Under the pieces are notes generated by a model. That model searched no databases, was not told the DNA's origin, and was given only the letters and a program-made list of their open reading frames with translations. Positions 1 to 11,966 of a stretch of 64,000 nt of DNA are shown here, piece by piece. The translations under genes were made by a program, and so were the position numbers. Numbering within the stretch: position 1 is the first letter of the stretch; every line of letters starts with the position of its first letter. This DNA comes from Minisyncoccia bacterium. GTDB lineage: Bacteria > Patescibacteriota > Minisyncoccia > Phycocordibacterales > UBA918. Where the stretch lies: positions 108,251 through 172,250 of the forward strand of contig JBKJIT010000001.1 in assembly GCA_046598345.1 (NCBI GenBank), given 5' to 3'.

Positions 1-255
1 CGTGACTCCTTGGATACCAAACACCGTCATAAAAATATTGATAATTCCCCAGAATCCAATGATGATGACAAACGCAAGAATTCCCCAGAGTGCAAACGAC
101 TTTGCTTTTTTTTGAGAGTCCTCATCACCACCGTGAAGTATGAAATATTGGAACGTATTCCACATGAAAAAGAGGAATGCGAGTAGGAGAACAAAGGGAA
201 TGATCCGATTGTTCAAGAATGTAAAAAAAAGTTGGAGGTATTGCTGAATATCCAT
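1..255 (-). CDS. small integral membrane protein, C-terminus beyond window edge (two predicted TM helices; VirB2/TrbC-pilin-like architecture is only a guess)
   Basis: Reverse-strand ORF starting at the ATG complementary to 253-255. Translation begins MDIQQYLQLFFTFLNNRIIPFVLLLAFLFFMW and ends inside GFWGIINIFMTVFGIQGVT. It runs off the window start, so it is absent from the ORF track. Confidence 0.35.
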   Translation of the reverse strand, partial: MDIQQYLQLFFTFLNNRIIPFVLLLAFLFFMWNTFQYFILHGGDEDSQKKAKSFALWGILAFVIIIGFWGIINIFMTVFGIQGVT

Positions 256-8157: not shown

Positions 8158-8400
8158 ATGTCACGTGAATCGTTTGTCTTTCTAGCAGGATTTGTTGTTT
8201 TCTTTGTTTCGTTCTTAGGCATCCCTATGGAATGGGAAAAATATATTCTTATTGGATCAGGTGTATTTCTTATGATTCTCGGGTACAGCCTTCGGCGCTC
8301 GTCGTTCCTCCGTTCTCTTAAAGCACACGATGGAGAGAGGAAGAGTGAGATGTTTGTGGAACAGGTTGCTCTGCGGGAGACTGAAGAAGAGAAAGAATGA
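8158..8400 (+). CDS. small membrane protein (80 aa), hypothetical
   Basis: Two TM helices then a charged tail. Tightly spaced after rsmI. Confidence 0.45.
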   Translation: MSRESFVFLAGFVVFFVSFLGIPMEWEKYILIGSGVFLMILGYSLRRSSFLRSLKAHDGERKSEMFVEQVALRETEEEKE

Positions 8401-8407
8401 TTCGTAT

Positions 8408-9712
8408 ATGTATCGTTATGGAGTAATTGGAATAGTTACACTCGGAACGCTTTTTGTCCTGCATGCGGGGCTCACGCGGATGACGACATACGAGTATGTA
8501 GCGGGCGAAACATCTGCAGAAGCTATCGCAGTGAACTCTGATGAAGCAAAGCACGTTGAAGCGATTCCCGTGGACACGAGAGAAGTAGTTACGCATGTAC
8601 CACTTCCAGCACAAGTAAAAAATATTTACATGACATCCTGTGTCGTCGGCACCACTGATTTCAGGAATCGGTTAGTGGCACTCATAGATGAGACTGAAAT
8701 CAATTCGGTCATTATTGATATCAAGGATTTTTCGGGAACGATTTCATTCCCTCCAAAATCAGCCGCCTGGCAACCTGCGTGGACTGATGCGAGATGCGGT
8801 ACCAGGGACATGAAAGAATTTATTGCAACTCTTCACGAAAAAGGGATATTCGTCATTGCGCGTATGACGGTGTTTCAAGATCCGTTCTACGCTCCGAAGC
8901 ATCCAGAACTCGCAGTCCTCAAGGCCTCTGACGGCAGTGTGTGGCGTGACGGGAAAGGACTCGCATTTATAGATGTTGCCGCAAAGGAGTATTGGGATCA
9001 CATCATTGAACTTTCCAAGGAAGTGTACAACATGGGCTATGACGAAATTAATTATGATTACGTGCGGTATCCTTCTGATGGAAATATGAAAGACATTGCG
9101 TTTCCCAGAAGTATGGCAGGAGAGTACGGTGCTGATAAGCAAGCTAACCTCGAGGCGTTTTTTAAATACTTAAACGAAAAGCTCGACGATCCGGAACTCT
9201 TTAATGAAGTTCGTCATGAAAATACTGGACGCGCGACCGCAACCCCGTATACCTCAGCTGATCTCTTCGGTATGACGACGACAAACACCGACGACCTTTC
9301 TATTGGGCAAGTACAGGAGCGCGCTGCGCCATACTTCGATTTTATCGCCCCTATGGTGTACCCATCTCATTATCCGAAAGCATTCCTTGGTCTTGGGAAT
9401 CCAAATGACTATCCGTACAAGGTGGTACATTACGCAATGAGTGGCGGTGTGGCCCGCATGATTGCATCGACAACCGTGGTACAAGGATTCCTCCATGAAC
9501 GCATTGGCACCTCAACACCGGCGGTGTATACAAAGCCTGTCTATACAGCCGATAAGTTTAGAACTTGGATTCAGGATTTTGATTACGGAGGAGACTACGA
9601 TGCTGCGGATGTGCGCGCTCAGATTCAGGCTAGCTATGATGCTGGAGTAAATAGTTTTATGATTTGGGCGCCTTCAAATATTTACACACGCGGGGCACTC
9701 CTCAATGAGTAA
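8408..9712 (+). CDS. putative glycoside hydrolase-like TIM-barrel protein (COG1306/DUF4015 type), N-terminal membrane anchor
   Basis: ATG at 8408 chosen because the track start 8330 overlaps the upstream gene. N-terminal TM. Motifs SVIIDIKDFSGTISF, FVIARMTVFQDP and GYDEINYDYVRYP resemble the uncharacterised putative-GH family. Confidence 0.55.
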   Translation: MYRYGVIGIVTLGTLFVLHAGLTRMTTYEYVAGETSAEAIAVNSDEAKHVEAIPVDTREVVTHVPLPAQVKNIYMTSCVVGTTDFRNRLVALIDETEINSVIIDIKDFSGTISFPPKSAAWQPAWTDARCGTRDMKEFIATLHEKGIFVIARMTVFQDPFYAPKHPELAVLKASDGSVWRDGKGLAFIDVAAKEYWDHIIELSKEVYNMGYDEINYDYVRYPSDGNMKDIAFPRSMAGEYGADKQANLEAFFKYLNEKLDDPELFNEVRHENTGRATATPYTSADLFGMTTTNTDDLSIGQVQERAAPYFDFIAPMVYPSHYPKAFLGLGNPNDYPYKVVHYAMSGGVARMIASTTVVQGFLHERIGTSTPAVYTKPVYTADKFRTWIQDFDYGGDYDAADVRAQIQASYDAGVNSFMIWAPSNIYTRGALLNE

Positions 9713-9769: not shown

Positions 9770-9994
9770 ATGGAACCAGCAACAGTGCACGGCATTGCGC
9801 ATGAAGCTGCAGTGAGCCTGAATGACATCGAGCTGATTCAGTTGTGGTCCACAATGACTGCAACTCGATCACCTGACGCGGTGCAAAAGGTGCTTCGGGG
9901 AGAGCCTGGTTCGGCAATCTCGGACGCGCGGCTCCGTGAAGTCGCTGATGCGATGAGTGAGCGAAATCTGTTCTCGTCGATGTGTCTCCTGTAA
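9770..9994 (+). CDS. small hypothetical protein (74 aa)
   Basis: Strong RBS GGGGAGGAGAGT then ATG at 9770. Followed by terminator 10008..10040. Confidence 0.45.
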   Translation: MEPATVHGIAHEAAVSLNDIELIQLWSTMTATRSPDAVQKVLRGEPGSAISDARLREVADAMSERNLFSSMCLL

Positions 9995-10007: not shown

Positions 10008-10040
10008 CGCCCCGCGGCCTTCAGGCAGCGGGGCGGTTTC
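10008..10040 (+). terminator. rho-independent terminator
   Basis: cgccccgc ggccttcaggca gcggggcg gtttctg. A TATACT -10-like hexamer follows, ahead of the 10056 start. Confidence 0.6.
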
Positions 10041-10055
10041 TGTTATACTTTCAAT

Positions 10056-11966
10056 ATGTCATTTGATCCAAACAAGATCACGTTCTTTGCGCAAACCGAT
10101 GCGCGCGGTAAAAACGTGAAGTTTGGTATTAAAGCGAAGGATAGGCAGCGGCACGTGTACGTCATTGGAAAGACGGGAATGGGGAAGTCGACCATGTTGG
10201 AAAACATGGCGGCGCAGGATATTCAAAATGGAGAGGGTTTGGCATTCATCGATCCACACGGGTCCTCGGCTGAAAGTCTTCTTAATTACGTACCTGAACA
10301 TCGAGTAAATGATGTGCTCTATTTTGCGCCATTTGATACCGACCACCCAATTTCGTTTAACGTCATGGAGGATGTGGGGGCAGACAAGCGGCACCTTGTT
10401 GTGTCTGGACTCATGTCGGTGTTTAAGAAAATATTCGTCGATCAGTGGTCGGCGCGTATGGAGTATATTCTTTCGAATACGCTCCTTGCGCTTCTTGAGT
10501 TTCCAGACTCGACGCTTCTTGGAGTTAACCGCATGCTTTCCGATAAGGACTACCGTAAGAAAGTAATTGATAACATCACCGACCCATCCGTAAAGTCTTT
10601 TTGGGTGGATGAGTTTTTGAAATACAACGAACGATACATGCAGGAGGCGGGTGATGCGATCAAGAATAAGATTGGGCAATTTACTGCAAATCCGGTTATT
10701 CGCAATATTATCGGACAACCGAAGTCGTCGTTTGATATTCGGAAGATCATGGATGAAAAAAAGATCATCATTATGAATCTTTCCAAGGGTCTTATTGGTG
10801 AAACCAATGCGAATCTCTTGGGGTCTATGCTGACGACGCGTATTTATCTTGCGGCGATGAGTCGTGCTGACCTTAGCCCTGAGAAGATGCGCGATATGCC
10901 CAATTTCTATTTTTACGTAGATGAGTTCCAGTCGTTTGCAAACGCAACCTTCGCGAATATTCTTTCTGAGGCTCGTAAGTACCATCTCAATCTCACGATT
11001 GCACACCAATACATCGAGCAAATGGAAGAGGATGTGCGCAATGCTGTTTTCGGTAACGTAGGCACGACGATTGCGTTTCGAGTGGGGCCATTTGACGCTG
11101 AAGTCCTTGAGACCATTTTTACCCCACAGTTTCTTGCCGCCGATATTGTTAATTTAGGGTTTGCACAAGTCTATCTCACCTTAATGATCGACGGTATTGG
11201 TTCTCAGCCATTTTCTGCGACAACGCTACCTCCGATTGAGCCTCCTCTCATTTCCCATAAAAATATGGTGGTTGCGGCGAGTCGCAGACAATTTTCTCGT
11301 CTTCGGCCAGAAGTTGAAGCTCAAATTTTAAAATTCCATGAGCCGGTTGTTTTTGTAAAGAAGTTAGAAGAAAAGCCTGCCCTTCCTAAGCCTTCACCTG
11401 TGGAGGAAAAGAAGCTCCCCTACGTTACCTTACAACCTAAAACGGCAAGTACTCCAACAGTCTCCCGTCCACCGGCCGGTGTTCTGCACCATGAAGAAAC
11501 CCCTCATCGCGAATCTTCTTCGCACGGAGAATTTCTAAAACGGGAAGAGCGAAGGCAGGCTGAACGTCGGCTAAGCGAGCGGCCATCTCCAGCTTCTCTG
11601 CCACATAAACCCAAGGAACATAATCTAAATGAACTCAGATCTGTGCTTAAAAATATTGTGAGAGTGGACACAGAAAAAAATACAGAGGAAAACAAGATCC
11701 CCCACAAAGCGGAAAAATTTGAGGAGTCGCGAGGCGAACTGAAGAATCTTCTCAGTTCTGTCCTTAAGACAGCTCCGCCTCCGACTGCGCCTATCCCCTC
11801 ACCAGCTGCAGCTATATCTCCACCCACACCCACACCCACACCGTCACAGCCTCCTCAGGTAGAGGAGCGCATACCACCCCAGCCACCGACACCAGAAAGT
11901 GCGGTAACTCCTAAAGAACTTGAACGGATGATGCGGGTGACGACTAGTGATACTTCGCCGCTCTAG
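10056..11966 (+). CDS. HerA/DUF87-like (FtsK-HerA superfamily) P-loop ATPase with low-complexity Pro/Thr-rich C-terminal tail
   Basis: Walker A VIGKTGMGKST, then FIDPHG about 17 aa later (HerA/DUF87-style DPHGEY-like motif). IIMNLSKG and a Walker-B-like FYFYVDEFQSF. C-terminal 150 aa is disordered: PTAPIPSPAAAISPPTPTPTPSQPPQ. Confidence 0.6.
   Translation: MSFDPNKITFFAQTDARGKNVKFGIKAKDRQRHVYVIGKTGMGKSTMLENMAAQDIQNGEGLAFIDPHGSSAESLLNYVPEHRVNDVLYFAPFDTDHPISFNVMEDVGADKRHLVVSGLMSVFKKIFVDQWSARMEYILSNTLLALLEFPDSTLLGVNRMLSDKDYRKKVIDNITDPSVKSFWVDEFLKYNERYMQEAGDAIKNKIGQFTANPVIRNIIGQPKSSFDIRKIMDEKKIIIMNLSKGLIGETNANLLGSMLTTRIYLAAMSRADLSPEKMRDMPNFYFYVDEFQSFANATFANILSEARKYHLNLTIAHQYIEQMEEDVRNAVFGNVGTTIAFRVGPFDAEVLETIFTPQFLAADIVNLGFAQVYLTLMIDGIGSQPFSATTLPPIEPPLISHKNMVVAASRRQFSRLRPEVEAQILKFHEPVVFVKKLEEKPALPKPSPVEEKKLPYVTLQPKTASTPTVSRPPAGVLHHEETPHRESSSHGEFLKREERRQAERRLSERPSPASLPHKPKEHNLNELRSVLKNIVRVDTEKNTEENKIPHKAEKFEESRGELKNLLSSVLKTAPPPTAPIPSPAAAISPPTPTPTPSQPPQVEERIPPQPPTPESAVTPKELERMMRVTTSDTSPL

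Follow-up and report, generated by a model that had tools for sequence, protein, structure and literature searches.

A type IV coupling protein-like ATPase without membrane anchor and with a motif-bearing C-terminal tail in Paceibacteria

Among the closest described systems to the gene reported here are the type IV coupling proteins (T4CPs) TrwB of plasmid R388 and VirD4, in which a Walker A/B core, an all-helical insert and a TraG-D_C region follow an N-terminal two-helix membrane domain, and TraD of the F plasmid and DotL of Legionella, which are membrane-anchored, are encoded in type IV secretion system (T4SS) loci and carry a C-terminal extension past the ATPase. The C-terminal regions of T4CPs dock auxiliary proteins, TraD binding TraM and DotL binding adaptor proteins (review PMC12857230). 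Here we describe a gene for a T4CP-like ATPase of 636 amino acids (aa) in a 64,000-nucleotide stretch, hereafter called the window, of contig JBKJIT010000001.1 (positions 108,251 to 172,250 of the forward strand; assembly GCA_046598345.1) from a Minisyncoccia bacterium. TrwB and VirD4-type T4CPs gave the best profile and fold matches to this ATPase, with which they share the core, the insert and the TraG-D_C region, albeit at only ~15% sequence identity and a TM-score of ~0.46 in the case of TrwB. Unlike TrwB and VirD4, the ATPase lacks the N-terminal membrane domain, is encoded by a chromosomal core gene and not on a plasmid or an integrative and conjugative element, shows no linkage to virB4 or a relaxase gene, and ends in a disordered tail of 200 aa.

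Patescibacteria, which depend on host cells, account for a large part of bacterial diversity. According to a survey that covered 3,035 genomes of this group (Quinonero-Coronel et al. 2025, PMC12102498), 5,713 VirD4-type T4CP homologues occur in 2,918 of these genomes (96%), only 148 of them near virB4, and VirB4 is present in 2,417 genomes (80%). The essential T4SS cluster of Southlakia is without recognisable coupling or relaxase proteins (Wang et al., PMC10633639). The ATPase described here almost certainly belongs to these 5,713 homologues and lies far from virB4; its close homologues bear the database name 'type IV secretion system DNA-binding domain-containing protein'. The gene class as such has therefore already been reported, and it is the orphan, anchor-less, hyper-conserved and putatively tail-tethered variant that appears to be undescribed: in the passages of PMC12102498 that were searched, we found no mention of subfamilies, a missing transmembrane domain, tail motifs, the degree of conservation, or anchor-adjacent or fused architectures.

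Family and fold of the ATPase

The gene and the features of its ATPase core are as follows.

10056..11966, + strand: complete gene for the T4CP-like ATPase, 636 aa, stop codon included (list of open reading frames (ORFs); identical protein P0001; PF10412, PF01935, PF02534 and PF12696 above their cut-offs)
10167..10193, + strand: Walker A motif or P-loop GKTGMGKST, aa 38-46 (read from the sequence; aligns to the P-loop of TrwB)
10248..10262, + strand: IDPHG, aa 65-69, where the strand that follows the P-loop helix ends (aligns to VDPNG of TrwB)
10380..10754, + strand: all-helical insert, aa ~109-233, within the nucleotide-binding domain (AlphaFold2 (AF2) model; putative equivalent of the T4CP all-alpha domain (AAD))
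10905..10925, + strand: Walker B strand FYFYVDE, aa 284-290, with D289 and E290 (aligns to LWLFIDE of TrwB; invariant in homologues)
10971..11009, + strand: ARKYHLNLTIAHQ, aa 306-318, TraG-D_C-type motif region (aligns to GRKAGLRVVAGLQ of TrwB; near-invariant)

The best match in Pfam was TrwB_AAD_bind (PF10412; E 3.3e-7, 30.0 bits, cut-off 20.5), which covers aa 26-343, and next in rank came the broad DUF87 model (PF01935; 26.7 bits, cut-off 23.2), T4SS-DNA_transf (PF02534; 25.3 bits, cut-off 20.1) and TraG-D_C (PF12696; 25.4 bits, cut-off 22), the last of which covers aa 284-352. FtsK_SpoIIIE stayed below its cut-off (13.6 vs 24 bits), and Pfam found no other domain in the tail. In NCBIfam, the top matches were TraD and VirD4-like models. 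A search of the PDB sequences with the single protein returned TrwB alone and only marginally (E 0.03), and significance was reached only with a family profile: profile A3, comprising 45 diverse relatives, matched TrwB at 4e-6, DotL at 2e-4 and HerA at 0.028.

The AF2 model of aa 1-440 (predicted local distance difference test (pLDDT) 73.8, predicted TM-score (pTM) 0.77) showed a RecA-like core with an all-helical insert, the latter consisting of eight helices between the strands E87-90 and E237-241, mostly with a pLDDT of 80-95. From its position and its fold, and not residue by residue, the insert is probably homologous to the AAD of TrwB. When the model was compared to the PDB by Foldseek, TrwB (9.6e-9), DotL (1.4e-8) and Cag-beta (5.5e-8) led the list, with matches to T4CPs down to 6e-7, and lower ranks were occupied by HerA (1.1e-6, others to 1e-3), the C-domain of DndH and VirB4 (6e-4). 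The alignments to TrwB, DotL and Cag-beta spanned 330-412 columns with TM-scores of ~0.45-0.5, and these modest values, ~0.46 for TrwB, are partly due to the low confidence at which aa 320-385 were modelled. This segment (window 11013-11210) is near-invariant across the family, yet its pLDDT was below 50 in both AF2 runs; it may fold only within an oligomer, as a subunit interface or as part of the central pore. The structure comparison had been proposed in an earlier note on this DNA, made from the sequence alone, which expected a HerA-like result; it placed the T4CPs ahead of both HerA and VirB4, and neither ABC ATPases nor KAP NTPases, which the note had named as possible contradicting families, were the best matches. 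Since Pfam, the profile search of the PDB and Foldseek all rank VirD4/TrwB above HerA, we conclude that the protein is a T4CP-type member of the FtsK-HerA superfamily and not a HerA proper. We regard this assignment of family and architecture as highly probable.

In an alignment of 62 homologues, G38, K39, T40, G41, G43, K44 and S45 of the P-loop were invariant, as were D66, P67, H68 and G69 of the IDPHG motif. The earlier note had recognised both motifs correctly, although 18 and not 17 residues intervene between them, and had taken their combination as a HerA/DUF87 signature. The combination is not specific to HerA, since an IDPHG-type motif is common to T4CPs, VirB4 and HerA and TrwB itself carries IVDPNGD. 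As the note had stated, the P-loop lies about 40 aa from the N-terminus (at aa 38) and is preceded neither by a HAS barrel nor by a transmembrane segment: in the AF2 model only ~30 residues, forming two short beta-hairpins, come before it, which leaves no room for a HAS barrel, and the maximum of a Kyte-Doolittle plot with a 19-residue frame over the 636-aa protein was 1.57, with no segment above threshold.

The placement of the protein within the FtsK-HerA superfamily, made by the earlier note, thus stands and is consistent with the DUF87 match; the narrower reading, as a HerA/DUF87 helicase-translocase and possibly an anti-phage ATPase of the HerA-Sir2, HerA-DUF4297 or MADS-like kind, is very unlikely and has been largely refuted. 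In its favour are the DUF87 score (26.7 vs 23.2 bits), the HerA structures found by Foldseek at 1e-6 to 1e-3, a match to the mad8 profile of PADLOC (E 2.5e-15) next to HerA profiles at 6e-8 or weaker, and the location of some plasmid-borne relatives from outside the candidate phyla radiation near CHAT-domain proteins. Yet HerA ranked below the T4CPs in every comparison, and the protein shares with HerA the superfamily and the P-loop ... hDPxG arrangement, but neither the HAS barrel nor a partner nuclease or effector (NurA, Sir2, DUF4297). No nuclease, Sir2, DUF4297 or mad gene is adjacent to it in the window or in three gene-annotated related loci, in agreement with the earlier note, which had listed no nuclease, SIR2 or VirB-like partner; when the neighbours in 84 related loci were clustered de novo, all families recovered were of the envelope or housekeeping kind; mad8 acts as a generic P-loop profile, the MADS profiles having their origin in HHpred/PDB alignments; and a fixed core synteny together with 72% identity across a bacterial class is unlike a defence gene. 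Membership in a MADS system was considered separately and rejected: such a system is an eight-gene mad operon that includes a methyltransferase, a specificity subunit and a kinase, whereas here mad8 (2.5e-15) is the sole profile with a match, no other MADS gene lies nearby, and the genes around the ATPase are those for DUF4015, an epimerase and glycosyltransferases.

The C-terminal tail

The tail that follows the core contains the features listed below.

11364..11963, + strand: C-terminal tail, aa 437-636, predicted disordered linker (pLDDT <50 except short helices; low identity)
11616..11660, + strand: tail motif 1, EHNLNELRSVLKNIV, aa 521-535, consensus (E/D)DLRSVLK+I (predicted helix 524-539)
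11736..11771, + strand: tail motif 2, ELKNLLSSVLKT, aa 561-572, consensus ELKxALxxVL (predicted helix 560-570)
11772..11906, + strand: Pro/Ala/Thr-rich spacer with a PTPTPT patch, aa 573-617, P 40% (sequence not conserved in homologues)
11901..11963, + strand: extreme C-terminal motif, AVTPKELERMMRVTTSDTSPL, aa 616-636 (predicted helix 619-628)

In the AF2 model of the full-length protein, the pLDDT of the tail was below 50 save for the helices 493-503, 524-539, 560-570 and 619-628, the last three of which coincide with conserved motifs. The earlier note had described a 150-aa disordered tail rich in Pro and Thr; the disorder is consistent with the model, the length is rather ~200 aa, and the Pro/Thr/Ala richness does not extend beyond aa 573-617, the composition of aa 437-636 being P 18%, E 13%, S 10%, T 8%, K 8% and R 7%. 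Identity among 120 homologues was 12-38% in the tail vs 80-99% in the core (aa 1-430), apart from three islands. In the first of these, motif 1, L527 and L531 are invariant and R528 is near-invariant; motif 2 is the second. The third is the extreme C-terminus ITPKELERMMRVTTSDKPPL (aa 616-636), which contains TPKELERMMRV and represents a clade-specific form of a family-wide amphipathic peptide, KE[VI]PE[DE]xLRKxL; over aa 621-636, identity in the 120 homologues was 77%, with L622, E623, R624, M625, M626 and D632 invariant. The amphipathic pattern K/F-E-V/I-P-E-D/E-x-L-R-K-Φ-L was present within the last 30 aa in 59 of 82 species-level Paceibacteria loci, compared to 0.14 expected from shuffled tails. 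The question raised by the earlier note, whether the PT-rich tail is conserved in orthologues, can thus be answered in the affirmative for the tail architecture and the three motifs, and in the negative for the PT patch itself.

This conserved architecture of a linker with short linear motifs is what would be expected of a tether that docks partners. TraD and DotL, the latter also among the top fold matches, offer the nearest comparison: they too extend past the ATPase at the C-terminus, and the conserved short motifs found here suggest a similar docking, although these motifs are unrelated in sequence to those of TraD and DotL, which are in addition membrane-anchored and encoded in T4SS loci. 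The earlier note had considered the tail typical of extracellular or cell-wall-spanning linkers and had named a frame artefact as the finding that would speak against its description. Pro/Thr-rich composition is indeed common in wall-spanning linkers and is found in aa 573-617, but the protein has neither a signal peptide nor a transmembrane segment, its ATPase domain must be cytoplasmic, and more than 200 relatives retain the length class of the tail, the order of the motifs and the C-terminal peptide, whereas the PT patch is not conserved. As to an artefact of frame or assembly, the annotated frame is the only one open over 11365..11966, the other two carrying 10 and 14 stops, and the identical protein was found on an independent assembly. 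The artefact reading is refuted by these data, and we give next to no credence to the tail being either an artefact or an extracellular linker; its resemblance to the docking tails of TraD and DotL accounts for the tail with no need for export.

A zinc-ribbon-like pattern, CxxC...F.PD..RP.yC..C, was observed in the disordered tails of sister clades (P0153, P0163, P0176, P0211, P0213 and P0222). It occurs in none of the 120 close homologues, the tails of which are without any cysteine.

Conservation, gene neighbourhood and relatives with an anchor protein

At E≤1e-3, an exhaustive search of representative sequences matched 21,581 cluster representatives, of which 5,799 remained at E≤1e-30. Relatives of the ATPase are present in at least 589 species-representative genomes. 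All of the 80 best-matching loci that were inspected belong to Patescibacteria (Kaiser-, Adler-, Zambryski-, Taylor-, Yonath- and Nomurabacteria, Paceibacterota). In the same Paceibacteria genomes, identity to the query was 72% for the ATPase core, compared to 45% for MurC, 49% for MurD, 48% for DUF4015 and 53% for RsmI. The gene thus belongs to the chromosomal core of Paceibacteria, where it is inherited vertically and under very strong constraint, and not to a mobile element. Relatives outside Patescibacteria, at 28-38% identity, were seen in 441 plasmid records, mostly typed as non-mobilizable, as isolated genes on large plasmids of Sulfitobacter, Bradyrhizobium, Streptomyces, Bacillus, haloarchaea and Sulfolobus, among others; examples are those of Sulfitobacter (NZ_CP081110, locus L165) and Bradyrhizobium (NZ_CP064708, locus L166). 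One plasmid relative lies between transposases, and another, with an N-terminal extension of ~320 aa of its own, lies beside CHAT-domain and TPR proteins.

The genes around the ATPase to which the comparison refers are the following.

8158..8400, + strand: conserved protein with two transmembrane segments, 80 aa in the window, upstream of DUF4015 (47 of 60 loci; no Pfam match)
8408..9712, + strand: DUF4015, membrane-anchored putative glycoside hydrolase, synteny neighbour (Pfam PF13200, E 2.6e-77)
9770-9994, + strand: lineage-specific ORF of 74 aa, directly upstream of the ATPase gene
1..255, - strand: partial VirB2-like T4SS pilin, starting at 255 and running off the window (PF18895 T4SS_pilin, E 5.9e-8, 33.1 bits, cut-off 26.6)

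In Paceibacteria, the gene order is murD-murC-rsmI, the protein with two transmembrane segments (~85 aa), DUF4015 and the ATPase, usually followed by a lamin-tail-domain (LTD) protein and glycosyltransferases, and of the 60 loci with enough flank, 50 have DUF4015 as the gene next upstream of the ATPase. When the synteny with the mur genes, rsmI and DUF4015 was tested in relatives at ~55% identity, it was not kept. We therefore take it as inherited gene order and not as a functional link, and do not treat DUF4015 as a functional partner. In most Paceibacteria relatives, the gene that comes right after the ATPase encodes the LTD surface protein of ~450-480 aa (L002:10045-11403, L039:11860-13296 and about 44 related loci), which is missing from the window.

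The constraint and the location of the gene bear on an alternative in which the same T4CP-like ring fold has been exapted as a housekeeping translocase that works independently of a T4SS, in FtsK-like DNA handling at division or in envelope biogenesis, with the C-terminal peptide tethering the ATPase to the divisome or to a membrane protein. We consider this less likely than not, though nearly as likely as the link to a T4SS discussed below. It would be consistent with the core identity of 72% vs 45-53% for MurC, MurD and RsmI and with the gene keeping its chromosomal place beside mur and rsmI in about 50 of 60 loci; this synteny is confined to Paceibacteria, though, is gone at ~55% identity and may be inherited order. 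The survey (PMC12102498) can be quoted on both sides: the T4CP homologues are found in 96% of genomes vs 80% for VirB4, are rarely near virB4, and the Southlakia copy is dispensable for epibiotic growth, but its non-essentiality argues against a universally essential housekeeping role as well. The protein and FtsK/SpoIIIE share the superfamily and have an analogous layout of a motor, a long Pro-rich linker and a localisation element, in an order that is the reverse of the one known for FtsK, with a terminal targeting peptide; they differ in that the ATPase has no membrane domain and no gamma (KOPS-binding) domain was detected in it. The Pfam FtsK_SpoIIIE score below cut-off, given above, speaks against the alternative, and so does the mention of an FtsK gene in papers on Saccharibacteria, according to which FtsK is probably not missing phylum-wide; that no FtsK gene turned up in the loci analysed here carries no weight, since they cover little of each genome. 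Finally, E-V-P-E-D-x-L-R-K resembles, with one extra residue, the C-terminal peptides of Patescibacteria FtsZ (EVPAFLRKK, SVPAFIRKK and DIPAFIRRK, in the loci L105, L111 and L145); the likeness is short, needs a gap of one residue, and may, speculatively, be due to chance or to a shared docking partner.

A different neighbourhood was found among more distant relatives, for which 80 metagenomic loci (L085-L164), 53 of them with sufficient flank, were analysed. In 37 of the 53, a protein of ~450 aa with an N-terminal hydrophobic anchor is encoded immediately upstream on the same strand (for instance L127:6594-7946, with the ATPase at about 8001), and it shares homology (blastp 5e-43 to 1e-15) with the first ~400 aa of 'long' family members, in which a transmembrane segment, the anchor domain and the ATPase form one polypeptide (P0181, P0183, P0187 and P0189). 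The anchor family had no match in Pfam, NCBIfam or the profile search of the PDB. As the two proteins are adjacent in some genomes and fused in others, they represent a fusion/fission pair, which argues for a physical interaction, and because relatives adjoin or are fused to this membrane-anchored protein, the membrane appears to be the site of action for the family as a whole. Upstream of the pair, 31-33 loci encode a protein of ~340 aa with a sigma-70 region-4 helix-turn-helix (HTH) and an RNA-polymerase-delta-like (HARE-HTH) part, an example being L164:5672-6700, roughly 2.4 kb upstream of the ATPase. The sigma-like protein, the anchor protein and the ATPase may constitute a previously undescribed three-gene, membrane-associated module for DNA handling. 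The sigma-like HARE-HTH protein was not found by hidden Markov model (HMM) search in the window or in 84 Paceibacteria loci. Clustering of the core sequences separated the orphan clade of the query from the anchor-adjacent and the fused groups, and the C-termini of these groups differ: PGExIxF or LxELKxxL in anchor-adjacent and FxEPII in some fused proteins. A high-GC protein of 1,227 aa, P0229, also bears the anchor domain.

With regard to the gene itself, its coordinates (10056-11966) and + strand in the ORF list are those given by the earlier note, and so are its direct neighbours, a small protein (the 74-aa ORF) upstream and an epimerase downstream; DUF4015 lies beyond the 74-aa ORF. Two observations make the ATG at 10056 the likely start, rather than the GTG at 9957 ahead of it: a 636-aa protein identical to the gene product (P0001) exists in public data on an independent assembly, and M1, F3, D4 and P5 are near-invariant in the alignment of 62 homologues. 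More than 100 homologues share the conserved N-terminus. No second copy of the ATPase was found in the window. The 74-aa ORF (9770-9994), which has a strong Shine-Dalgarno sequence (GGGGAGGAG), matched nothing in Pfam, and none of 84 related loci contained a homologue of it. Between it and the ATPase gene lies a GC-rich hairpin (~10010-10034), and a TATACT box is located ~10 nt ahead of the ATPase ATG.

All ORFs of the window over ~460 aa and a selection of smaller ones were scanned. The scanned ORFs encode Mur ligases, MurB, RsmI, DUF4015, epimerases, GT4 glycosyltransferases, an ATP-grasp protein, a PHP-domain protein, a deacetylase, two asparagine-synthase-like AsnB proteins, a Wzy_C/TPR protein, SecA, ATP sulfurylase/APS kinase, GatB and Obg. 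The only T4SS-type gene among them is the partial VirB2-like pilin, 9.8 kb from the ATPase, which the earlier note had singled out as the only other secretion-like gene in the window; the PF18895 match agrees with this, with the addition that the gene lies on the minus strand (255->1). Pilin homologues were found at a similar upstream distance from the ATPase in four close relatives (L002, L007, L010 and L018). Positions 12149-54000 form a very large envelope-glycan region with many GT4 glycosyltransferases, several epimerases, a UDP-GlcNAc 2-epimerase, the two asparagine-synthase-like amidotransferases, a flippase-like Polysacc_synt protein and the Wzy_C/TPR protein; the fused ATP sulfurylase/APS kinase encoded there suggests sulfated glycans. 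At ~28-50 kb, the G+C content is 0.36-0.43 vs ~0.47 elsewhere in the window, hinting at horizontal acquisition of this segment.

Possible recruitment in trans to a T4SS-like machine

As the best explanation overall, we tentatively favour, at somewhat less than even odds, a T4CP-like ATPase that is recruited in trans to a T4SS-like machine. By analogy with other T4CPs, the protein would form a hexameric ring which, driven by ATP, receives a DNA or protein substrate and hands it to a membrane channel. Since the ATPase has no membrane anchor of its own, the tail motifs would recruit it in trans to one or more partners, with the flexible linker acting as a tether like the C-terminal regions of TraD and DotL. 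The likeliest channel, if only narrowly, would be a chromosomal T4SS-like machine encoded elsewhere in the genome, because a coupling protein is characteristically missing from such clusters and because the ATPase belongs to a T4CP family; this particular link to the T4SS-like machine of the lineage is a slightly more doubtful part of the explanation.

Several observations weigh against recruitment to a T4SS-like machine. The canonical N-terminal transmembrane domain of T4CPs is missing, and the anchor protein was not found by HMM search in the window or within 10 kb in 84 Paceibacteria loci. The AF2 confidence for aa 320-385 is low and the TM-scores to TrwB reach only ~0.46, and the equivalog cut-offs of NCBIfam were missed widely (SXT_TraD, 46.6 vs 366 bits; CD1115 VirD4-like, 39.5 vs 250 bits). 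Neither virB4, virB6, virB8 nor a relaxase or nuclease gene was present among the scanned ORFs of the window, the two dozen ORFs of 190-390 aa at 17.7-49.6 kb being unscanned. The extreme constraint and the site among housekeeping genes of the cell envelope are unusual for a conjugation-type T4CP. According to PMC12102498, moreover, T4CP homologues are more widespread than VirB4, the t4cp gene of Southlakia is not essential though its T4SS is, and the authors state that exaptation of Patescibacteria T4CPs 'cannot be ruled out'. A bolder form of the exaptation alternative, an FtsK turned inside out, would have an exapted ring motor tethered by multivalent tail motifs, with the FtsZ-like end recruiting it to a partner of the FtsA/SepF type, and would not involve a secretion coupling protein; it seems improbable to us.

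In Patescibacteria, the T4SS is essential in the one species tested and its cluster is without a coupling protein, and T4CP-like genes are found elsewhere in nearly every genome. If the ATPase were merely the detached coupling protein of such a T4SS, the result would be a useful refinement of annotation and no surprise. The three tail motifs, including the C-terminal peptide, and the anchor protein are handles on what these ATPases connect to, and thereby bear on whether their role lies in host interaction, in DNA traffic or in cell division.

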